Positions 2,406-49,922 of a stretch of 64,000 bases of DNA are shown here, in pieces. The notes below the pieces were generated by a model. It was not told the DNA's origin. It made no database searches and saw nothing but the letters and a program-made list of their open reading frames with translations. This stretch comes from a bacterium (GTDB taxonomy: Bacteria > Electryoneota > RPQS01 > DYHQ01), in NCBI GenBank assembly GCA_030622545.1, contig JAUXGA010000011.1:18214-82213 (forward strand), given 5' to 3'. A program made the translations under genes and the position numbers. The first letter of the stretch is position 1; each line of letters starts with the position of its first letter.

Positions 2406-3959
2406 CTATTTAATTAAGACGAGCCGTTGTGTTGAAATCGAGTGCCTATCGACAAGAATTTGGGCGAAATAAACACCCGAAGCCCATGAAGAACCTGAAA
2501 CGGATAATAGATGCTTCCCCGCAGCATGCTTTCCGTAGAAAATGCGACCGACTTCCTGACCCAGCATGTTAAAAACAGCGATTTCCACAGTCGCACTACG
2601 GTACAGTTCCAACGGAAGGACGGTTGACATGTTGAAAGGATTCGGATAAGCTGCACCCACACTTATATCTGTTGGAACATTCGGATTCGGATCAGCAGCG
2701 GCGCTTTGAAAATAATAAGCACCCACATCAGCGACTGTACCGTCCGGGTCGCGGGGCGCTCCTACATTCGGGTCTCCTGCATCAATACAAGGGGAATTAT
2801 TTTGCAATTCGTAACTGAAAGGCTCTTCTCCAACAACTCCAACAAACAGCGGATCCATGTTGAAATTTCCTTCATCATCTAATCTTCCATCCAGTGTCTG
2901 GCCAACACCTTTGTCATCATTTAATGATGAGGTACCGTAAAGCTCCTGCCATAAATCACAGTAATCTATTGAGGGCGTCGCCAAACAATCGGTAGCAACG
3001 AATGAGCCTCCAGCATTACCATCCAGCCATAGAATCGAGTTGACAATTTCGGCGTAAGCGCGACCCCACAGTAAGATGGCCGAACGCTCGCTGTTTTCAG
3101 AGATGATATGCAAGGTACAATTCTCGATAGTGTAATCGTGACTATCATCAGCTCGAATCCAGATTCCGCGCGCCCAATATCCCCGGCTTTCAGCGCGAAT
3201 CACATTCCGCTTGATAAGCAGATTATCGCAGTTATTCTTGGCGTAGATTCCCGTGATACTTCCCTGTCCATCAATACGAAATTCATTATGCTCAATCAGC
3301 AAATTTTGCGAATCCTGGATATGAAGACAAGATGTATGATTTGTACCAAGAACACTCACGATAATATTGTTGTCGTTCACTATGGAATTGGATGCTCGAA
3401 CAAGAAAAATCGCCGAACCCGCCGCTCTTGATTTCGTGATAGTGCTGTTCTTCATCCAAACAGGTGCGCCTGTGCATTCAAGTGCCGTACGCCGCGCTCC
3501 AATCATACAGTCATTGATATCCAAAGGTCGTCCTTTCGACGTAAGCGCACGAGACGGAAGAGCCTCTGGATCAAAATGAACGTGATTCAAGCGAACCGTG
3601 TCGTCAGCAGCGCCCGCCAGAAAAAGGAAACACTGCGCCCCAGTATCTGCTTCAACAATAATCGGAGCCCATGCTTCTCCCATCGCCTGAAAGCCGCCTT
3701 CAACCCTGATAGGCAACCTCCATTCCACTCGCACCGTAACCCCAGCGTGAATCGTCAGGGTCTTGTCAGCAGGAACCCAACTATCCCCATCAATGACATA
3801 TACGTAATGGGTCGTATCAGGCGGATCGACATCCCCCCAATCCCCGAACTGTGTGAGATCTCCTGAGACCCGGGTTTCCGACTGCAGAACACCCGCCAAC
3901 ATCAGGCAGATTCCCACAAGCACAATGCAACGTATAAATACTTTCATGCCTACCTCCAC
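2406..3959 (-). CDS. Secreted right-handed beta-helix (pectate-lyase-fold) protein with T9SS C-terminal sorting domain
   Basis: 517 aa ORF; probable true start at internal MKVFIRCIVLVG (GGAGG 5 nt upstream); repetitive NxIxxN beta-helix-like segments; C-terminus AYPNPFNMSTVLPLEL...VYFAQILVDRHSISTQRLVLIK matches Por/T9SS CTD. Confidence 0.75.
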   Translation of the reverse strand: MEVGMKVFIRCIVLVGICLMLAGVLQSETRVSGDLTQFGDWGDVDPPDTTHYVYVIDGDSWVPADKTLTIHAGVTVRVEWRLPIRVEGGFQAMGEAWAPIIVEADTGAQCFLFLAGAADDTVRLNHVHFDPEALPSRALTSKGRPLDINDCMIGARRTALECTGAPVWMKNSTITKSRAAGSAIFLVRASNSIVNDNNIIVSVLGTNHTSCLHIQDSQNLLIEHNEFRIDGQGSITGIYAKNNCDNLLIKRNVIRAESRGYWARGIWIRADDSHDYTIENCTLHIISENSERSAILLWGRAYAEIVNSILWLDGNAGGSFVATDCLATPSIDYCDLWQELYGTSSLNDDKGVGQTLDGRLDDEGNFNMDPLFVGVVGEEPFSYELQNNSPCIDAGDPNVGAPRDPDGTVADVGAYYFQSAAADPNPNVPTDISVGAAYPNPFNMSTVLPLELYRSATVEIAVFNMLGQEVGRIFYGKHAAGKHLLSVSGSSWASGVYFAQILVDRHSISTQRLVLIK

Positions 3960-4063
3960 ACGGCTGGTTAAGGCATCTTCAACACCTATATAAATTTACA
4001 AAGTTCAACTCCCGGAGTCAAGGTTTCTTGGCAATTTTTGAATCTTTTCTTGCATCACTGTCT

Positions 4064-4288
4064 TTATATGATTTTCTTGATATTGTCAAGTATTTCGTTA
4101 TTTTCAGGGAAACGGCCTTCTTTTCTTTTCGAAAAGAGGAGGCGGCCATCCACTTCTACCTCGAAAACACCCCCACCTGATTTGATAAATTCAATCTCCG
4201 AATACCCTTCTCGCTTGAGAAAATCGGCCAGACTGGCCGCTTGGGGATAGTAGTTTCATTCTACACAGTATTCAATTGTTATACGCAT
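4064..4288 (-). CDS. SelW/Rdx-family selenoprotein (in-frame UGA = Sec in CxxU motif); 74 aa
   Basis: Not in ORF track. Minus strand: AAGGAG-N9-ATG then MRITIEYCVE-TGA-NYYPQAASLADFLKREGYSEIEFIKSGGGVFEVEVDGRLLFSKRKEGRFPENNEILDNIKKII-TAA. CVEU fits the Rdx CxxU redox motif; C-terminal GGGxFEVxVDGxLLFSKxxxGRFP resembles SelW/Rdx family; TGA codon at plus 4256-4258. Confidence 0.7.
4225..4239 (-). promoter_or_regulatory. Candidate bacterial SECIS stem-loop (CGGCC-AGUCU-GGCCG) starting 16 nt 3' of the in-frame UGA
   Basis: Perfect 5-bp GC stem with 5-nt loop containing GU, positioned at the distance expected for a bacterial SECIS element; seen directly in sequence. Confidence 0.4.
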
Positions 4289-4336
4289 ACCGGACATCTC
4301 CTTTTTCTTTTAAAATCACATAGCTCCGATATAGTT

Positions 4337-5011
4337 CTATGATTTTCCGATGACATATTTCGCCGGTCGGCTGCGCAGAACTTGCAGCACTCCCGTTACG
4401 ATTTCCCTTCGACTCAAACGGCGCGGGCCTCGCACAGTCTGCGTGCGACCAAGGTATAATTCTGTCGGGACGATTTGAGTCCCCACCAGCTCTCGTCTGA
4501 GAGCTCTCAGGTAAATCTGCAGCGCGGCACGACTGGCGGCATAAGCGGCGGGTTGTTTTTCAAGCGCGAGAGCCGCCGCACCACATATCACGATTGCATG
4601 GCCTCGCCCCAGACGCTTGAACATGGGATGCGCCAATGAAAAACAATTGATGAATCCATAGAAATTCAATCCCATGACGCGTACTAATTCCGCGCCGCTG
4701 AAAACTTCCTTTATCGCAGTATCAGGTTCAATCCCGACGTTGTAAATCAGACAATCCAACCGCGGTGACCTCTCCACGATCTTCTCAAAAGCTTTAATGA
4801 CTTGCTTGCCGTCGGTAACACTGGCCGCCAGCGATAGTACGGAACCGGGCGCCCAATTGGTCGCGGCCATGACCTCACGCAACCTTTCCTTTGTACGGAA
4901 GAAAAGCACGACACGCTCGCCCCGCTTTACGATTTCGTCCGCTAAAGCAATCATTGCAGGCGAGACCCCGGCTATCAATGTGGTTGGGCATTCCTGTTCC
5001 AAGGATATCAT
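4337..5011 (-). CDS. Short-chain dehydrogenase/reductase (SDR) family oxidoreductase
   Basis: 224 aa; Rossmann-like N-terminus (TLIAGVSPAMIALADEIVKRGERVVLF), SDR-like Y..AS(R/K) region AAYAASRAAL; start codon overlaps nothing; directly upstream (same strand) of selenoprotein gene. Confidence 0.7.
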   Translation of the reverse strand: MISLEQECPTTLIAGVSPAMIALADEIVKRGERVVLFFRTKERLREVMAATNWAPGSVLSLAASVTDGKQVIKAFEKIVERSPRLDCLIYNVGIEPDTAIKEVFSGAELVRVMGLNFYGFINCFSLAHPMFKRLGRGHAIVICGAAALALEKQPAAYAASRAALQIYLRALRRELVGTQIVPTELYLGRTQTVRGPRRLSRREIVTGVLQVLRSRPAKYVIGKS

Positions 5012-20411: not shown

Positions 20412-20571
20412 TGGAGATAACCGTTCCTTCTAAACTCTGAGTCCCGATCTTGTTGGCCTTCCTGCAGAGCGCAACGAAGCATTTCCAATGGTAATGCCCT
20501 TCCATACCCGCCTGTTTCGACAGATACAGGTCGCTGCCCTCAATCTCTTTATTACAGGATTTGCAAATCAT
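20350..20571 (-). CDS. Small Cys/His-containing hypothetical protein (possible zinc-ribbon)
   Basis: 73 aa, MICKSCNKEIEG...HYHWKCFVALCRK; strong RBS GAAGGAGAG 8 nt upstream of ATG; 3' end overlaps annotated start of the HpnC-like gene by ~60 nt. Confidence 0.4.
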   Translation of the reverse strand: MICKSCNKEIEGSDLYLSKQAGMEGHYHWKCFVALCRKANKIGTQSLEGTVISSGIYESTTPSGVGKEPIEND

Positions 20572-20698
20572 GTTCGCGTACTCTCCTTCAAATCTCCATC
20601 AGAAGAATTCTCATGCCAACACATAACCGGAACTTTGTTAAACTCATATTCGAGTCCCCGGCATGTCTGTGGCATTTCCGGGGACTTTTGTGCAAAAA

Positions 20699-25151: not shown

Positions 25152-25213
25152 AAGTCATACCTCTGTAAGCTATGTGAAAAAGTTCTGCGAATTTATTTCA
25201 GAACAAAGTTTAA

Positions 25214-25283
25214 CCGCCGAGCCGGGTTCAGCGCCGATGCCCGTTTGGCAAACGATAAAATTATCGCGCGTAACCCGGCCGGA
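25214..25283. repeat. ~70-bp inverted-repeat element, family B (CGCCGAGCCGGGTTCAGCGC-N~30-ATCGCGCGTAACCCGGCCGGA); copy 1
   Basis: Termini CCGGGTTCAGCGC / GCGCGTAACCCGG are near-perfect reverse complements; other copies at 31485-31556 (reverse) and 33868-33936. Confidence 0.65.
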
Positions 25284-25301
25284 ATTTTCAGTACCTCCAG
25301 C

Positions 25302-25327
25302 GCACTGCCGTGCGGCACTACCGGACG
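25302..25327. repeat. Palindromic repeat family D, copy 2
   Basis: gcactgccgtgcggcactaccggacg, adjacent to family B element in same intergenic region. Confidence 0.6.
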
Positions 25328-25447
25328 CTTATAATATACGATAAATACCTCTAAATCGCAAACAGATTTCAATACGATTTCTCCCTTGATTTTACGCCAA
25401 AAATAGACTATACTGTTACGTCATGACGGATTCCAAATAGAGAGAAT

Positions 25448-26918: not shown

Positions 26919-28217
26919 TTACTTCAACAGCACCATCTTCTGCTGCGAAACAAAGCCTCCGGATTTTAATTGATAAATATAGACGCCCGACGGCAAATCA
27001 CCCGCATCAAATGCGATTCGATACTCTCCGGCAGGCTGCTCCCGATTCACAAGCGTCGCCACGAGACGACCGGTGATATCATACACTGTCAGGCGCACGT
27101 GTCCCGCATCAGCAATCGCGTACACAAGCTCTGTTACTGTATTGAACGGATTCGGATAGTTTTGCGCAAGGTAGTAATTCTCAGGAGCCGCTTCCGCAAG
27201 CGGAACAGCCATAACTTCGCTAAGCTCCTCCACCACTCCAGCGAAATCCAGAGACTTCAAACGGTAGTGATAGGCGGTTTCAGCCGAAACGTTTTCATCG
27301 ATATACGTATAAGAGGATGTCGTCGTGCTGTTGCCCCGTCCATCGATTCGGGCAATTTCGAACCACGACGCGCCTGAACTTGACCGTTCAAGAATGAAAC
27401 AGCGGTTATTCTGCTCGGTACCGGTAATCCAGTTTAATCGCACGGCATTTTCCAACGGCTCCGCCTCAAAACTTTGCAATTCCACCGGTAACTGATACTC
27501 AAAGTAATAGCACCAGCATCCCGGCTCGGTTAGGTTAACCGGCCAGAAGATACGACACCAAATATTGGGAACAGGATTGCAGGCCGGACCCCATATAACA
27601 TCATCAAATACCGCTGGTATGCACGTGGTATCATTACATTGAGTATTGCCCGGATCGCATCCTGGGGTAATCTGGAACAGCGGTTCAAATGGTCCTTCAC
27701 AATACCAGAGAACACAAACATAATCCAGACTGTCGCCTGTAAATTCAAAACATTCCGCTTCCGGCCACACGAGAACATTGCGATCCGAAACGACCACGAA
27801 ACCGGAATTCTCATCCATCGCACTTGGAAGCGAATCAATCACTCCCCCGGGACTCGGGCAAGGCAGAATAATCGGCCGGTCGCGCGCGAACGCCTCACCG
27901 GTGACAATGACCTGCGTCGAATCACCTCCATCCGAGCTGTAGACGCATTCAAATCCGTTAATATTGTACAGAGTGTCGAATTCATAGAGCCTTGTCGCTC
28001 CACTGCCCGGTCCGGCTGAAATCTGAAGATCCGGATCATCAAACAGCACCACTTCCTCCCAAGTGAAAGCGGCATAGGTCATTTCCACACTGTGCGCACC
28101 GCATCTTAAGAACATATGGCTGCCATCCATCTCATCGGCGGCAACAACCGGGACAGCGATGACCAGCACGAGACCTAACGCAAAACTGCGTTTTAAAAAG
28201 CGAAAAAATATTCCCAC
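26919..28217 (-). CDS. Secreted protein with T9SS C-terminal sorting domain (fibronectin-III-like region upstream of CTD)
   Basis: Signal peptide MGIFFRFLKRSFALGLVLVIAVPVVAA; C-terminus NYPNPFNTVTELVYAIADAGHVRLTVYDITGRLVATL...IYQLKSGGFVSQQKMVLLK. Confidence 0.7.
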   Translation of the reverse strand: MGIFFRFLKRSFALGLVLVIAVPVVAADEMDGSHMFLRCGAHSVEMTYAAFTWEEVVLFDDPDLQISAGPGSGATRLYEFDTLYNINGFECVYSSDGGDSTQVIVTGEAFARDRPIILPCPSPGGVIDSLPSAMDENSGFVVVSDRNVLVWPEAECFEFTGDSLDYVCVLWYCEGPFEPLFQITPGCDPGNTQCNDTTCIPAVFDDVIWGPACNPVPNIWCRIFWPVNLTEPGCWCYYFEYQLPVELQSFEAEPLENAVRLNWITGTEQNNRCFILERSSSGASWFEIARIDGRGNSTTTSSYTYIDENVSAETAYHYRLKSLDFAGVVEELSEVMAVPLAEAAPENYYLAQNYPNPFNTVTELVYAIADAGHVRLTVYDITGRLVATLVNREQPAGEYRIAFDAGDLPSGVYIYQLKSGGFVSQQKMVLLK

Positions 28218-29678: not shown

Positions 29679-31415
29679 TTACTTCACCAATACCAAACGC
29701 TGCACAGCTCGTTTCCCGTCCGCTTTCAAGTGCGCGAAGAAAACGCCGCTCGCTTGACTCGGCGCGGTCCACGAAATGCGATGCGAACCTGCCGGAACAG
29801 TCTTTCCTTGAATCAATGTCTCCACTTGGCGGCCTAAAATATCATAAATCACCAGTGATACTTTCGTCGGTGCTTTCAGTTCAAAAGGAATCACCGTTGT
29901 CCCATTGAACGGATTGGGAAAAGCGGGCAACAAACAAAACGTAACCGCAGAAACAGGATTCGACGGCGGCGCATTGGAGAAATCCACATGAAGCGGACGC
30001 CAAGGAATTATCGGTGTCGTTGCAATATCCGCGTACGAGACTTCCTGATAAATCATCAGATTCAAACTCGGGTTATCGCTTTCGATTCCGATATCGCTTT
30101 CATAGAAAAGATGCAGCCACCCATCTACGATTTCAGCTAAGGAAGCATCGCGTTCATGCGCCGATACTTGTCCACTGCCCAGCGACTGCGTCAGGTTCGT
30201 TCCTTCTGCCCAAGACATGCCGCCATCAGTCGAAACCGTCGCCCAGATATCAGCCGCGCGGAATCCACTTGGCGAAATATCTTCCTGATTGGTGCGCATA
30301 TACGAGCAATAGAGATAGCCCATTGTGGGATCGATTCCCATCGAGGGCTGCTGCACGATGCGATCCATACCGCCGGGAAGAGAGCCGTCGATTTCCTGCC
30401 AGCCCTCAGCGAGCGGCGAGAAAACTCCCGTCTCTTCGTTCCAGTACCATATCATACTGGCTTGGTCTGTGGTCAAACCTTCAATCGCCCAGTAACCGAC
30501 AGTCGTGAACGCCACATGCAGGTAATCCTGCTCGTCGAAGAACAGCGCGCAATCGTTGAACGCTCGCAGCGTGTCCTGATTCGCGCGGACCGTATCCGGC
30601 AGTTCGTTCAAATCCGGCGGCAGGAAAGAAGTCAGATTTATCACGTCTCCCCACGTCTCGCCTCCGTCCTCCGACAGCATCAGAAAAATATCGTTGTTGT
30701 AAGCATGATAGAAGCCTTCGTGGTCCGGCTGTAACTGGCTCCAACCAAGAGCGACTCTTGGCGAGTGGCGCGCACAAGCGATGTTGTGAGATGACACAAG
30801 CTGCGCTCCGACTCGCACCGCATCCGTGCCTTCAAATTGCCCCGAATTCGTATCATACGTCGCCGATGAATACCAGATGTCGAACGAATCCGCTTCCATC
30901 GTCATGCCGGTAAAAATCGAATGAATGCGGCCGTTTGTGTCGCGCGCGATGTGAGGTTCAATCATCATCGACGGCTGAGCGGGGAATTCAAAACAGTCGA
31001 AAACACAGACTCCCGACATGTAATCGACGCACACGTGAGCATGCGCGCTCATGCCGCCGTTCCCATGGTACGCGATGATGCCGTTGCCTCCCTGCAGCAC
31101 GGCAAGACTGGGATACCCGCCGCGACTGGAACCGTCGGCCAAACAGCCTCCCGGCATCATCCATTCGCCTTCCGCCGTGCGCATATTGTAGTAGATGTGC
31201 CGCTGCTGCGGGGGAACGTTGTCATCCATCGCATTCATCCACGCGACATGGATGGAGCCAAACGCATCGAGCGCGATGATGCGTCCGACTTCACCGCTGT
31301 GCTGACGGCTCGTGTGCGTTGTACCTACCGTATCTACGAAACCCAGCGGATCCGCAAATAAAACTCCTGATGCTGCAAAGCTTAGGAATATGCAGACCAA
31401 ACAAACGCGAAGCAT
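29679..31415 (-). CDS. T9SS-CTD secreted protein, paralog of the 47919..49922 product (BNR/beta-propeller-like)
   Basis: Start at MLRVCLVCIFLSFAASG (AGGAGA 8 nt upstream); shares VGTTxxxxQHxG, VxVxWMNx, RxxYYN blocks with 47919..49922 product; C-terminus FPNPFNGTTVIPFEL...FFAHLKADGKRAVQRLVLVK. Confidence 0.7.
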   Translation of the reverse strand: MLRVCLVCIFLSFAASGVLFADPLGFVDTVGTTHTSRQHSGEVGRIIALDAFGSIHVAWMNAMDDNVPPQQRHIYYNMRTAEGEWMMPGGCLADGSSRGGYPSLAVLQGGNGIIAYHGNGGMSAHAHVCVDYMSGVCVFDCFEFPAQPSMMIEPHIARDTNGRIHSIFTGMTMEADSFDIWYSSATYDTNSGQFEGTDAVRVGAQLVSSHNIACARHSPRVALGWSQLQPDHEGFYHAYNNDIFLMLSEDGGETWGDVINLTSFLPPDLNELPDTVRANQDTLRAFNDCALFFDEQDYLHVAFTTVGYWAIEGLTTDQASMIWYWNEETGVFSPLAEGWQEIDGSLPGGMDRIVQQPSMGIDPTMGYLYCSYMRTNQEDISPSGFRAADIWATVSTDGGMSWAEGTNLTQSLGSGQVSAHERDASLAEIVDGWLHLFYESDIGIESDNPSLNLMIYQEVSYADIATTPIIPWRPLHVDFSNAPPSNPVSAVTFCLLPAFPNPFNGTTVIPFELKAPTKVSLVIYDILGRQVETLIQGKTVPAGSHRISWTAPSQASGVFFAHLKADGKRAVQRLVLVK

Positions 31416-31484
31416 AGCTTTCTCTCCTCTTTGCGTATATTCTCCCACTGCTTGCGGGGGAACAAAAGGGGGGCGACCTTAAAT

Positions 31485-33706: not shown

Positions 33707-33867
33707 TACGCTCCCGCGTATTGTACGCGCGTCCCCACAATGCGAACAAATTCGAGCTCTCCAACACGCAGGAGCGTGTTGGCTAGTGATGGTTAGGAAG
33801 AGTTAATGCGGTGTTGGCTGCTTGCAGCTGACCCATTCCCGTTCTGACAAACGAACGAATTCTTCAT

Positions 33868-33936
33868 CGCCGAGCCGGGTTCAGCGCAAGTTCCCGTATG
33901 CCAAACGATACAACTATCGCGCGTAACCCGGCCGGA
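33868..33936. repeat. Family B ~70-bp inverted-repeat element, copy 3
   Basis: cgccgagccgggttcagcgcaagttcccgtatgccaaacgatacaactatcgcgcgtaacccggccgga. Confidence 0.65.
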
Positions 33937-33950
33937 ACTAACGAGAATCC

Positions 33951-33983
33951 GCCGCGAGTGGGTGCCCCCACCCCTCGCGCAAT
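33951..33983. repeat. Palindromic repeat family C (GCCGCGAGTGGGTGCCCCCACCCCTCGCGCAAT)
   Basis: CGCGAGTGGGTG / CACCCCTCGCG arms form a hairpin; adjacent to family B copy. Confidence 0.6.
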
Positions 33984-34054
33984 TACCTCACCGCGAAAAT
34001 CGCAAGAACAGGGATAGAATATATGAGGAAACAGAATATGTGTTTCATTTTACA

Positions 34055-34083
34055 TAAAAAAGCCTCCCTTTCGAGAGGCTGTT
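34055..34083 (-). terminator. Rho-independent terminator of tonB (AACAGCCTCTCGAAAGGGAGGCTTTTTT on minus strand)
   Basis: GCCTC/GAGGC stem immediately 3' of tonB stop followed by T6. Confidence 0.55.
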
Positions 34084-34087
34084 GAAT

Positions 34088-39140: not shown

Positions 39141-39194
39141 TCTCAGAACCTCTTAAAAATAGACCACAGATTTATTCGAATTAATTGATTTCTT

Positions 39195-39371
39195 TTACAA
39201 AACAGAACGCGGAAATTCCATATTATAGAGTTCTGTTACTTCCTTAAGATTGGCAACAGCTTCTTCCACGGTGTGTCCCTGACTCACGGTTCCTGTCTTA
39301 GGACACTCAGCGACGTACAGATCATCTTCTTTGTGCAAAACCGCCGTATATGTCTGACTGTTCGTTTTCAA
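39195..39371 (-). CDS. HicB-like antitoxin-family small protein (RNase-H-fold HicB N-domain only), second copy
   Basis: Not in ORF track (TTG start with GGGAG 9 nt upstream): LKTNSQTYTAVLHKEDDLYVAECPKTGTVSQGHTVEEAVANLKEVTELYNMEFPRSVL matches HicB_lk_antitox pattern (YxAxxxxEDGxYVAExPExPGxxSQGxTxEEAxxNxKEAxELY). Confidence 0.5.
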   Translation of the reverse strand: MKTNSQTYTAVLHKEDDLYVAECPKTGTVSQGHTVEEAVANLKEVTELYNMEFPRSVL

Positions 39372-39401
39372 CGCGGGTACTCCCTATCCCCAAATCCGTA
39401 T

Positions 39402-39641
39402 CTATATTTTGCCGTACGCTTCCAAAAATTCTTCTCTCGAAATTCCAGATTGGGTACAGATTGTTCGCAAAGTTGAGGCTTTTATCTTTGGCTTATTTGG
39501 CATCGTCAGCGGTATTTTGGTTCCATCGCGATTATCTCGCACCATAGAAATATGCTCTTTCTCGCGCACAATTCGGAATCCCAGAATCTCGAGTGTTTTA
39601 ATGACTTTCGGCTTGGGAGCATCAACTGGAAATTTTGTCAT
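39402..39641 (-). CDS. hicA: HicA-family mRNA-interferase toxin (YcfA-like)
   Basis: 79 aa; PKVIKTLEILGFRIVREKEHISMVRDNRDGTKIPLTMPNKPKIKASTLRTICTQSGISREEF fits HicA (k.ikaLek.Gf..vRqkGSH..l.......tvPvH..kel..gtLr.Ilkqagl); start overlaps hicB stop (ATGA). Confidence 0.7.
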   Translation of the reverse strand: MTKFPVDAPKPKVIKTLEILGFRIVREKEHISMVRDNRDGTKIPLTMPNKPKIKASTLRTICTQSGISREEFLEAYGKI

Positions 39642-41671: not shown

Positions 41672-41925
41672 AGACGAATTCTGAATTGATTTACGCTTTA
41701 CAACAACAAATCTACTTAAGTGTGTAATATACCTATCTGTTCTCAAAATCGCAAGTGAAATTTTACACTCAAATCCTCTTTTCGCTATGTATCACCTATA
41801 ATGCCTCCCCATAGATTTATAATTTGTATTTCCATAATTATCAATATCTTATACCTAATTTTTCATATTTCAGACAGAATCCTTGACGCGACCTCCGCAA
41901 CTTCTGTTAGCTGGCGTTTGATGTC

Positions 41926-42019
41926 GGGCAGGCAGAGTTAGACCGTAGGATGGAAGCAAAGACCTAACAGGAATCTTGGGTGAAACTTAACAAAATTCCA
42001 AAGGCTGGCTCTGCCTGCC
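41926..42019. repeat. Palindromic repeat family E, long variant (GGCAGGCAGAG ... CTCTGCCTGCC termini)
   Basis: Shares GGCAGGCAGAG / GGCTGGCTCTGCC termini and internal TAGGAT segment with 14027-14084. Confidence 0.5.
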
Positions 42020-42113
42020 TTACCTTCTCAAGAGAACTCTACATCCAAAGCAAGAAAAAAGCGCGCGAACAGCTCTGTCCGCGCGCCTTTGATATTATCG
42101 TTTGACTCGAATA

Positions 42114-47112: not shown

Positions 47113-47240
47113 TAGGGGCCGACCCAAGTGTCTGCCCGCCGATACTTGGGCTTGAACGCGGGCGCACACGTGGGTACGCCCCTACAACTGGATTCTGCCA
47201 CGACAATTCATAACGGGCGCACACGCGGGTACGCCCCTAC
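47113..47240 (-). repeat. Cluster of three REP sequences (GTAG-type; GTAGGGGCGTACCCRCGTGTGCGCCC) 3' of RAYT gene
   Basis: Copies at 47113-47139 (degenerate), 47160-47185 and 47215-47240, all in the same (minus) orientation; each begins with the GTAG tetranucleotide characteristic of REPs and can fold as GGGCGYAC/GTGYGCGCCC hairpin. Confidence 0.75.
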
Positions 47241-47779
47241 GCGCCGATGTTCTGTGGATTTTCTTTATCCAGTTCCCACCGCAGTGGATTGTCCCGAATA
47301 TATTCGCGAATCGCTGTTAGGTCTTTATCACCACGAATAACATGTTCGTAATAGTTTCGTTGCCACAGGCGCTTTCGAAATGGTGCCCAATTATGAGTCT
47401 TGACGTTACGAATATATTCATTTGTCGTCATGGTTTTAAACCATCGCACAATTTGCTGTAGGGGCGTACCCACGTGTGCGCCCGTTTTCATATCCGCAGA
47501 TCCGTCCTCTTCATCGGGTATTACAACAATCCTGTGAAAATGATTCGGCATTACGATGTGACAATCCAACTCCACATTGTATTTATCCGATAGTTTTTCC
47601 CACCAAATTTCCAACAGATGACCGGCTGTGTTTATCTTCATTTCGCCGCTAATAATTTCACCGAATAAACACAGATGATCCTGCGCACAAATAGTGATGA
47701 AATAGAAACCGGGCTGTGTATAGTCATAATCAGGTAATCGAATGGTTTTGCGTTTCGGATAATGATTTGGTGATATCAT
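47237..47779 (-). CDS. REP-associated tyrosine transposase (RAYT; IS200/IS605-like Y1 HuH transposase)
   Basis: MISPNHYPKRKTIRLPDYDYTQPGFYFITICAQDH..., HuH motif VMPNHFHRIVV, catalytic Tyr region RNYYEHVIRGDKDLTAIREYIRDNP; flanked by REPs; ORF-track N-terminal extension to 47893 rejected (translated REP). Confidence 0.75.
   Translation of the reverse strand: MISPNHYPKRKTIRLPDYDYTQPGFYFITICAQDHLCLFGEIISGEMKINTAGHLLEIWWEKLSDKYNVELDCHIVMPNHFHRIVVIPDEEDGSADMKTGAHVGTPLQQIVRWFKTMTTNEYIRNVKTHNWAPFRKRLWQRNYYEHVIRGDKDLTAIREYIRDNPLRWELDKENPQNIGA
47458..47484 (+). repeat. REP copy embedded in-frame inside the RAYT coding sequence (encodes ...KTGAHVGTPLQ...)
   Basis: gtaggggcgtacccacgtgtgcgcccg in opposite orientation to flanking REPs; lies between HuH motif and catalytic Tyr. 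Confidence 0.7.
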
Positions 47780-47795
47780 TAAAGACTCTATTCGC

Positions 47796-47821
47796 GGGCG
47801 CACACGCGGGTGCGCCCCTAC
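47796..47821 (-). repeat. REP copy 5' of RAYT gene
   Basis: gggcgcacacgcgggtgcgcccctac, same orientation as 3' cluster. Confidence 0.7.
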
Positions 47822-47918
47822 AATATGAACAGATATCTGTCCAATAGAAAGGGCCAGATGCTGGACTCTGCATATCTGGCCCTTCGAATTCACGAAAGCA
47901 AATGAAAGGAATTTCCAG

Positions 47919-49922
47919 CTACTTCATCAGCACCATTTTCTTGGAAGCCACGTAGCCGTCAGAAATCAGCGAGTAGATGTAAATTCCTGATGCCAGTTCC
48001 GAACCATCGAAAGCAATATTGTGCGTTCCAGCCGTCAGCGTCACATCGCTAAGCAGATTCGCGACTTCCTGTCCCAGCACATTGTAAACTTTCAACGTCA
48101 CCTTCGCGCGTTGACCCATATCAAACTGAATCATCGTCGTCGGGTTAAACGGATTCGGGTAGTTCTGATACAGTGCAAACCGCTCCGGCAATGCATGCGT
48201 CTCGACAGAGCCGCTCAGGTAACATTCGTCCGGCGGAAGACCGACGGAATCCCAGTGCATCGGATACCGCTCCGTATACGGCAGGGCAGGAATGTCCGCC
48301 ACGGGAATCCGCTGGTAAATCACAGGATTGAGCGTCGCCAATCCTTCTTCCTGCGGAACACCGCCCGCGTCCTTGTCCAGAACATATTCCATATGCAGAT
48401 ACCCACCCGTGACGAGTTTCGCGACCGTGATATCGCGTTCATGCAAACTTTCACCGGAAGGAACGATCTCCATCGGAGGTGTCGTGTTGGTCACGTTTGT
48501 ACCCAGCGACCACGAACAGCCGTTGTTCGTGGACATCGAGACCCAAGCATCCGCCAAAGGAATACCGCTGGATTCGCTATAGGCCAGCGTGTCATATTTC
48601 TGATAGGAACAATAGAGGTAGTTGGTCGAAGGATCAACTGCCAGACTCGGCCGCTGAGTGGTACGCTGCCACGCTCCCGGCTCATAAGCCGGCTGCCAAC
48701 CGTTAGCGACAAGGCTGCTGTAATGCGTTTGTTCATTCCAGTGCCAAATCATCGAATTAGTCGAATAGGAATACCAGCCGCTGTCGATAACGCCGCCGTT
48801 ATCCACATACCAGAAAAATGCGGGCGTCGTGAAAGCAACGTGAATGTAGTCATCTTCATCCATCAGAATCGAGCAGTCCGTGTAAACACGGAACGTATCC
48901 CGGTCGCATTCATAGGGATCACCGCCTTCATCAAGGCAAACCGGATCCCACGGCGTCCACTGGGTGACGTTGATGAAATCGCCCCAATTTAGGCCGCCGT
49001 CTTCCGAAACCATCATATAAATTTCATTGTTAATCTGACTTGCGTCAGCCAAATCATCCATGGAATGGCACCACGCAATCGCAACGCGCTCCGTGTGACG
49101 CGAGCAAGCAACATCCGGCGCAATGACCATGACATACTCAACCTCATTAAAACCGCTACAGGTCAATTCGTCCCATAGAATATCCAGTCCGAATCCATCC
49201 TGATCAAATTCCGGCACGCCTCGGGAATAATAAATCCGCTGGGGATCGCCTGCAGCGCCACTGGCGGGATTTTCGCAGGAAACCATGTGGAGAACACCGT
49301 TGATGTCCATGTCAATCTTCGGCCAGATAAGTTCCAAATCGGTCCCACCATCAAAACACCATGCCGGTTCCACAACCGTGAAAGCTTCACAATAGGCGCA
49401 ATAGTCAATCGCTGAAGTCGCGTGCGCATTGTCACCGGTTGTTTGCTGATGGAACGCCGGGAAACAGAAACCGTCGGGCGATGTCACCTGACTGATATAG
49501 CCGGCGCGCGTCGAAGCATCGATACGAATACCGATATTGGTGTACATGAAATCGCTTGTCACCGGATCCCAGACGTTGTAATAAACGTACCGGGGATTTT
49601 GTTGCGCGTTCAAACCGTTCATCCAGACGACTGAAACCATTCCGAAATCATCCGCGCTGATCATCTTTCCGGCGGTACCGTTGTGCTGATAATCATACCA
49701 GGTCGTTCCCGCTGTATCGATTGTTCCAACATAGTCATCCAAATGTTGGGACGTCGGCCGATCAGGCGCAACGCCGACGGTGATGTCGGGATCATTCGAC
49801 GTTCCGAATACAGGGAGGTTTTGGTCCATCTTCTGCTTGTGAACAACCTTGTCCGGAGCCGCCCAAAGCAGCCCGACCGCGACGACGCCCACAAGAGTGA
49901 ATACAAATAAATTCCGCAACAT
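47919..49922 (-). CDS. T9SS-CTD secreted protein, paralog of 29679..31415 product (beta-propeller/BNR-like)
   Basis: Signal peptide MLRNLFVFTLVGVVAVGLLWA (AGGAGG RBS); shared N-terminal blocks with paralog; C-terminus NYPNPFNPTTMIQFDM...IYIYSLISDGYVASKKMVLMK. Confidence 0.7.
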   Translation of the reverse strand: MLRNLFVFTLVGVVAVGLLWAAPDKVVHKQKMDQNLPVFGTSNDPDITVGVAPDRPTSQHLDDYVGTIDTAGTTWYDYQHNGTAGKMISADDFGMVSVVWMNGLNAQQNPRYVYYNVWDPVTSDFMYTNIGIRIDASTRAGYISQVTSPDGFCFPAFHQQTTGDNAHATSAIDYCAYCEAFTVVEPAWCFDGGTDLELIWPKIDMDINGVLHMVSCENPASGAAGDPQRIYYSRGVPEFDQDGFGLDILWDELTCSGFNEVEYVMVIAPDVACSRHTERVAIAWCHSMDDLADASQINNEIYMMVSEDGGLNWGDFINVTQWTPWDPVCLDEGGDPYECDRDTFRVYTDCSILMDEDDYIHVAFTTPAFFWYVDNGGVIDSGWYSYSTNSMIWHWNEQTHYSSLVANGWQPAYEPGAWQRTTQRPSLAVDPSTNYLYCSYQKYDTLAYSESSGIPLADAWVSMSTNNGCSWSLGTNVTNTTPPMEIVPSGESLHERDITVAKLVTGGYLHMEYVLDKDAGGVPQEEGLATLNPVIYQRIPVADIPALPYTERYPMHWDSVGLPPDECYLSGSVETHALPERFALYQNYPNPFNPTTMIQFDMGQRAKVTLKVYNVLGQEVANLLSDVTLTAGTHNIAFDGSELASGIYIYSLISDGYVASKKMVLMK

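Follow-up and report, generated by a model that had tools for sequence, protein, structure and literature searches.

An uncalled SelW-like gene with an in-frame UGA codon and a conserved SECIS-like hairpin in an uncultured bacterium

Introduction

Between a short-chain dehydrogenase (SDR) gene and one whose product carries a T9SS sorting tail, the 64-kb stretch of DNA analyzed here (the window) carries a gap with no called gene. On the minus strand, this gap holds a short frame that opens with a ribosome-binding site and an ATG, and that meets a UGA at codon 11. The question raised by this locus is whether that UGA ends the frame, reflects an error, or encodes selenocysteine (Sec) in a small protein of the SelW/Rdx family, as was originally predicted.

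SelW-like proteins were among the prokaryotic selenoprotein families already known at the time of the 2005 Sargasso Sea survey (PMC1088965). They outnumbered every other family of that data set, with 48 genes, and were characterized by a CXXU motif and by SECIS elements of the bacterial kind (PMC1088965). They have also been catalogued in many genomes, with very few or no Cys homologs (PMC1794560).

Materials and methods

For profile-HMM scoring, the Sec residue (U) was written as Cys. Relatives were collected by a word-indexed protein search, which gave 17, and by scanning a single genome for each GTDB species, which gave 283. The best 80 of these 283 were retrieved and, together with 3 earlier loci, made up the 83 loci that were compared with the window. 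Alignment A2 comprised, without gaps, 70 distinct sequences of 45 nt, each beginning with the TGA.

Results

The reading frame and its start

Translated from ATG to TAA, the frame 4288..4064 (-) reads MRITIEYCVE, then the in-frame UGA, then NYYPQAASLADFLKREGYSEIEFIKSGGGVFEVEVDGRLLFSKRKEGRFPENNEILDNIKKII and the final stop (Table 1). Frame, ribosome-binding site, start and stop agree letter for letter with the original prediction, whose coordinates were right. The ORF track is indeed empty here, and the mechanical ORF list holds no ORF of at least 30 aa in this frame. The CxxU redox motif is present with the UGA at codon 11, and so is the announced C-terminal signature of the SelW/Rdx proteins, with its GGxFEV, FSK and RFP motifs. 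The residues found invariant in alignment A1 were S37, G38, G39, G40, V41, F42, E43, D47, F52, S53, K54, R59, F60 and P61.

In the relatives, the Shine-Dalgarno sequence is AGGAGG and its spacing is equal to that of the window. There is an additional in-frame ATG at 4297-4295. Since it abuts the GGAG without any spacer and is missing in the close relatives L001, L002 and L004, we place the start of the SelW-like gene at 4288. On the 3' side of the in-frame TGA, the earliest ATG, GTG or TTG of the window gene is codon 46.

Table 1. Features of the SelW-like locus and its neighbors in the window.
Feature	Position	Strand	Details
Predicted SelW-like/Rdx-family selenoprotein CDS	4064..4288	-	74 codons + TAA; predicted Sec = codon 11
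Shine-Dalgarno AAGGAG	4298..4303	-	9-nt spacer to ATG, read directly from the sequence
Redox motif Cys8-Val-Glu-Sec11	4256..4267	-	TGT GTA GAA TGA; predicted Sec codon TGA 4258-4256
Motif S-G-G-G-V-F-E	4160..4180	-	codons 37-43; columns invariant in alignment A1
Motif F-S-K-x4-R-F-P	4106..4135	-	codons 52-61; columns invariant in alignment A1
Predicted bacterial SECIS hairpin	4225..4239	-	stem CGGCC (4239-4235)/GGCCG (4229-4225) + A-U closing pair; loop AGUCU (4234-4230), apical loop A-GUC-U
Short-chain dehydrogenase (SDR) gene	4337..5011	-	Pfam adh_short, 89 bits
Beta-helix protein with T9SS sorting tail	2406..3959	-	104 nt downstream of the SelW-like gene

Family membership

The encoded protein belongs to the Rdx family by every profile that was scored. 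Pfam Rdx (PF10262) matched over its whole length with 70.6 bits against a cut-off of 22.6, the NCBIfam equivalog NF041051 ('SelT/SelW/SelH family (seleno)protein') with 94.1 bits against 88, and TIGR02174 (CXXU_selWTH) with 64 bits against 34.2. The 63 residues after the UGA reached 45.9 bits with PF10262 by themselves, and the first 11 residues, with Sec as Cys, added 24.7; the homology is therefore independent of the substitution of Cys for U. In this way the expected similarity to the Rdx/SelW profiles was found above the curated cut-offs, also for the part after the UGA alone.

The top PDB matches were the Rdx-family proteins MIEN1 (2LJK) and Atu0228 (2FA8), both with E of about 3e-10. The alignments span the UGA, and it stands opposite the second Cys of the CxxC motif in 2FA8_A ('riairyCtqCnw') and 2LJK_A ('vrivveyCepCgf'). 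The UGA had been expected to align with Sec or Cys, and it does so with Cys in these two structures and with TGA in the 83 other loci (including the best 80 of 283). MIEN1 has a thioredoxin-like fold and a redox-active motif (PMC3527542), and judging by this homology the product of the window gene would be a small protein with a thioredoxin fold.

The UGA codon in the window and the Sec machinery

TGA terminates 10 of the 48 long ORFs of the window, and the Pfam matches of these ORFs are complete. UGA is thus an ordinary stop in this DNA, and its proposed recoding is local to the SelW-like gene. When the readthrough ORFs of the window were enumerated (334), no second credible gene with an in-frame TGA was found, since the SelW-like frame alone combined unannotated space, a redox motif and homologs.

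The window holds no tRNA by ARAGORN, hence no tRNA-Sec, and no SelA, SelB or SelD by a Pfam search on its approximately 50 ORFs. This is expected and says little, because 64 kb are about 1-2% of a genome. In the neighborhood of 60 related loci, ARAGORN found no adjacent tRNA-Sec and a single tRNA-Pro.

The hairpin downstream of the UGA

The GC hairpin CGGCC-AGUCU-GGCCG that had been reported 16 nt past the UGA is present at 4239-4225 with that onset, and its letters encode the peptide A-A-S-L-A. It folds with -9.9 kcal/mol. The stability of a 60-nt fold is unexceptional (z = -1.36; 22 of 200 shuffles fold equally well), so the significance of the hairpin rests on comparative data.

In alignment A2, columns 19-24 pair with columns 30-35. 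The helix is paired in 86.4% of the cells; sliding the 3' partner by 1-3 columns lowers this share to 22-58%. Its covariation score was 0.280 against 0.070 +/- 0.012 for shuffles (0 of 500 reached it), and the slid controls gave 0.024-0.116. Both-sided changes were observed in four of the six pairs. The pair 21-33 occurs in six types (n = 70: CG 31, GC 13, UA 9, AU 6, UG 6, GU 1, other 4) and, since both of its columns are synonymous third positions of Ala codons, this covariation is not attributable to the protein. In the apical loop, G26 is invariant and U27 is conserved in more than 90% of the sequences. RNAalifold on the 45-nt alignment recovered the top three pairs only, and the six-pair helix was specified and counted explicitly.

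The published model of the bacterial SECIS describes an apical loop of 3-9 nt with a G in its first two positions, an upper stem of 4-16 bp, a distance of 16-37 nt from the UGA to the loop and an MFE of -7.5 kcal/mol or lower (PMC13188914). In the window hairpin, the loop counts 3-5 nt, depending on whether it is read as AGUCU or as GUC with the A-U pair closed; the stem has 5-6 bp, the distance is 21 nt and the energy is that given above. Its loop letters, G then U, fit the pattern N1-G-[G or U]-N-N2 (PMC13188914). The hairpin proposed as a SECIS thus fits the model and covaries as none of the shuffles did. The energy and loop-G tests were passed by 61 of the 70 sequences of A2. Among the window, the best 80 of 283 and the 3 earlier loci, the element is nearly fixed as GCN-GCC-AGU-YUG-GCN, hard-wired into A-A-S-L-A and common to more than 10 phyla. 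No Rfam family was matched in the 64-kb window at the gathering score, and none was matched by the hairpin at that threshold; a search of 3900-4450 at E of 10 or lower returned only chance matches to one miRNA and one lncRNA model.

Two variants of the helix were also observed. In 15 of the 70 sequences of A2, where the second Ala codon is replaced by Ser or Thr, columns 22 and 32 form a mid-stem U.C or A.C mismatch; a 1x1 internal loop is apparently tolerated in the SECIS. The alphaproteobacterial-type homologs L050, L057, L065 and L066 (and L082) present a distinct helix, GCUCUC-CGUGY-GAGAG, which is fully compensated and encodes A-L-R-x-R instead of A-A-S-L-A, while the G-U of the loop and the register are retained.

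Conservation of the UGA and selection on the gene

At the codon of the CxxU motif, TGA was present in 84 of 84 loci (the window, the best 80 of 283 and the 3 earlier ones) and a Cys form in none. The loci among the best 80 of 283 come from more than 10 phyla and include Calditrichota, KSB1, Zixibacteria, Eisenbacteria, Krumholzibacteriia, Acidobacteriota, Planctomycetota, Desulfobacterota, Alphaproteobacteria and others. The complete lack of Cys forms in this set agrees with the earlier catalogue (PMC1794560). Across the same 84 loci, the 10 codons preceding the UGA show conservation at the protein level (IEYC).

The window gene and its close relatives L001, L002 and L004 share 91-92% nucleotide identity, and their codon differences are 11-12 synonymous and 7 non-synonymous (dN/dS 0.15-0.16). 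On the 5' side of the UGA only synonymous changes occur, and the hairpin codons 17-22 do not differ at all. Purifying selection acts on both sides of the UGA. From the exclusively synonymous changes and the low dN/dS, it follows that the ten codons before the UGA are translated within the same protein as those after it. The maintenance of the UGA and the SECIS under purifying selection in four close genomes is a strong, if indirect, argument for the existence of the Sec machinery.

Genomic context

The SDR stop lies 48 nt 5' of the SelW-like ATG. A promoter-like site at 5083-5055 is the only one on the minus strand upstream of the SDR and SelW-like genes, and the gene with the T9SS tail has a promoter-like site of its own at 4021-3993. 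The SelW-like gene is likely co-transcribed with the SDR gene. The order Wzi-SDR-Rdx-T9SS protein is kept in L001 and L002, two MAGs labelled 'bacterium'.

The comparison of neighborhoods among related loci revealed no universal neighbor across phyla. A thioredoxin-reductase-like gene (Pyr_redox_2, CATCDG) lies convergently downstream, 0.2-1.4 kb away on the opposite strand, in 10-11 loci of the Calditrichota type (L005, L009-L012, L015-L017, L024 and L026); in the window it does not adjoin the SelW-like gene. This adjacency could be a functional redox pairing or mere lineage synteny and, being seen in Calditrichota-type loci only, it is weak evidence for a functional link. In one MAG (SRP162660_co2_186), identical SelW-like copies stand on two contigs (L009 and L010), a case of duplication or of assembly redundancy.

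The GC content of the window is 51%, and its Obg protein finds its best named matches in Calditrichota (79%) and KSB1 (63%). Together with the several T9SS-tailed proteins encoded in the window, these data indicate an uncultured member of the FCB group. The relative L004 (CAZADO010000093.1) is labelled 'uncultured Alphaproteobacteria bacterium'. Since its gene is 97% nucleotide-identical to that of L001, and the Obg of the window lineage is closest to Calditrichota/KSB1, this label appears doubtful.

Elsewhere in the window, T9SS C-terminal sorting domains occur in four proteins, all on the minus strand (2406-3959, 26919-28217, 29679-31448 and 47919-49922) and otherwise with little or no Pfam annotation. 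An ORF between obg and one of these genes (47237-47893, minus strand) shows a weak match to an IS200-like Y1 transposase (27.7 bits). A cluster of the type IV pilus/T2SS kind, with a PilB-like ATPase, T2SSF, a prepilin peptidase and a secretin, extends over approximately 50-61 kb. Intergenic gaps of 250-380 nt, without ORF call and without Rfam match at the gathering threshold, were noted at 33707-34087, 39141-39408, 41747-42113, 25152-25447 and 20412-20698.

Database entries of the relatives

It had been anticipated that standard gene callers would truncate or miss a gene of this type, and the database entries bear this out in two ways. The two nearest relatives, at 87-89% identity, appear as calls cut short to 55 aa (MADFLK...), namely MBU1937762.1 (P0001) and the JGI entry P0004. 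Such entries are named 'Rdx family protein' or 'selenoprotein W-related protein' and do not contain the CxxU motif. The loci of MBU1937762.1 are L001 3729-3896 and L002 1312-1479, and the called start is a CTG within the SECIS hairpin. On the other hand, the full-length homologs P0002, P0003 and P0005-P0015 carry Trp ('W') at the Sec position. In L003 (1403-1630) the DNA has TGA at this codon, and translation with code 11 does not give the database entry; the 'W' is therefore an artefact of gene calling with code 4.

Discussion

The observations gathered here make it very probable that 4288..4064 (-) functions as a gene and encodes a SelW-like selenoprotein of the Rdx family, 74 residues long. 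If the E. coli system is taken as a guide, ribosomes would initiate at the ATG behind the AAGGAG, and the UGA at codon 11 would be decoded as selenocysteine instead of as a stop. The recoding would be due to the mRNA hairpin 16 nt downstream, acting as a bacterial SECIS that brings SelB-GTP-Sec-tRNA(Sec) to the ribosome. The encoded protein is predicted to be a thiol-dependent oxidoreductase, in which Cys8-x-x-Sec11 would cycle between the selenol/thiol and the selenenylsulfide forms.

Other explanations of the same frame have to be considered. If the UGA were a true stop, the real product would be a truncated Rdx protein initiated downstream, of the kind annotated in MBU1937762.1 and the JGI entry P0004 (55 aa). 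We hold this to be highly improbable. Those calls take as their start a CTG of the hairpin itself (position 3729 of L001), the window offers no ATG, GTG or TTG after the UGA before codon 46, and the ribosome-binding site stands before the upstream ATG. Such a product would also be without the two elements that define the family, its first strand and its redox motif, and the codons it discards are those conserved as IEYC in the 84 loci and altered only synonymously among the close relatives. It is highly improbable, too, that the UGA is translated as something other than Sec, either under a code in which it means Trp or Gly or by near-cognate readthrough with Trp or Cys after loss of the Sec machinery. 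Many database homologs do show 'W', and the 64-kb window showed no Sec machinery. However, the 'W' comes from code-4 translation of what in L003 is a TGA, the same codon ends 10 of the 48 long ORFs of the window with complete Pfam matches, and a conserved, covarying SECIS has no role in plain readthrough.

The TGA is one base away from the Cys codons TGT and TGC, and MAG assemblies do have errors; a pseudogene, or a Cys codon misread in sequencing or assembly, is nevertheless extremely unlikely. TGA stands at this place in all 84 independent assemblies (the best 80 of 283, the 3 earlier loci and the window), from many phyla and with no Cys form among them, and the dN/dS of 0.15 and the covarying hairpin at the SECIS position speak against both variants. 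On the comparative data, this explanation can already be taken as effectively refuted. We give equally little credit to a role of the GC hairpin as an intrinsic terminator or attenuator in place of a SECIS. A consensus scan does mark 4239-4225 as terminator-like, with the stem followed by AUUUUCUC, but the U-rich tail is not conserved in the homologs (e.g. GAAGCAAUU and GCCGACCUG), whereas the stem, the G-U of the loop and the distance to the UGA are. Besides, the hairpin is embedded in coding sequence, with purifying selection acting on either side.

We therefore return to the SelW-like selenoprotein. The window gene is a real, previously uncalled member of the well-known SelW-like family. 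Since this family is among the commonest and longest-known of the bacterial selenoproteins (described in 2005), the result is an annotation fix and not a discovery, and it leaves the knowledge of selenoproteins and of UGA recoding unchanged. Its practical value lies in the annotation. The SelW-like gene is absent from standard ORF calls, and the forms present in public databases are wrong in two ways, as a 55-aa fragment with a CTG start or as a full-length protein with an active-site Trp from code 4. The correction gives the organism one more selenoprotein and implies Sec competence.

A broader suggestion can be made only tentatively. With Sec in 84 of 84 loci and Cys in none (the best 80 of 283, the 3 earlier loci and the window), the SelW-like clade might be obligately Sec-encoding, which we consider possible but rather doubtful. 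If this were true, the pattern, with its nearly fixed SECIS common to more than 10 phyla, would suggest a very ancient co-conservation of protein and RNA element, or else a self-contained Sec module that was passed on horizontally more than once, and the gene could be used as a simple marker for Sec decoding in phyla not yet cultured, e.g. Calditrichota, KSB1, Zixibacteria and Eisenbacteria.

Comparison with known systems

The Cys-containing Rdx proteins of solved structure, namely Agrobacterium Atu0228 (2FA8), Vibrio 2P0G, Streptomyces SAV_2001 (3DEX) and human MIEN1/C17orf37 (2LJK), are homologous to the window protein over its full length (E = 3e-10) and have the redox motif at an equal position. 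They differ from it in presenting CxxC instead of CxxU, with neither UGA nor SECIS, and in being approximately 30 residues longer at the termini.

The E. coli fdhF SECIS, which is bound by SelB and serves as the paradigm of the bacterial elements, is like the window hairpin located in the coding region just past the UGA, and its small apical loop likewise contains G-U. The minimal helix of fdhF starts 11 nt past the UGA, whereas that of the window starts at 16 nt. Unlike fdhF, the window hairpin has no bulged U, and about one fifth of the homologs have the mid-stem U.C or A.C mismatch instead. Both elements fit one consensus model (PMC13188914). Mammalian selenoprotein W has the Rdx family and the CxxU motif in common with the window protein, but the eukaryotic SECIS sits in the 3' UTR and is built differently (PMC1088965), while that of the window would lie inside the ORF.

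The closest known system is that of the bacterial SelW-like selenoproteins described by Zhang, Gladyshev and co-workers in 2005-2006 (NF041051, TIGR02174, PF10262). These proteins have about 75 aa, as the window protein does, with an N-terminal strand followed by CxxU and then the SGGGxFEV and FSK...RFP motifs. In both, the in-frame UGA is followed by an in-frame bacterial SECIS, and the close homologs are almost without Cys forms (PMC1794560). The host of the window gene is an uncultured bacterium whose Obg is closest to Calditrichota/KSB1, lineages that were unsampled in the original surveys; between the gene itself and the bacterial SelW-like family there is no substantive difference.
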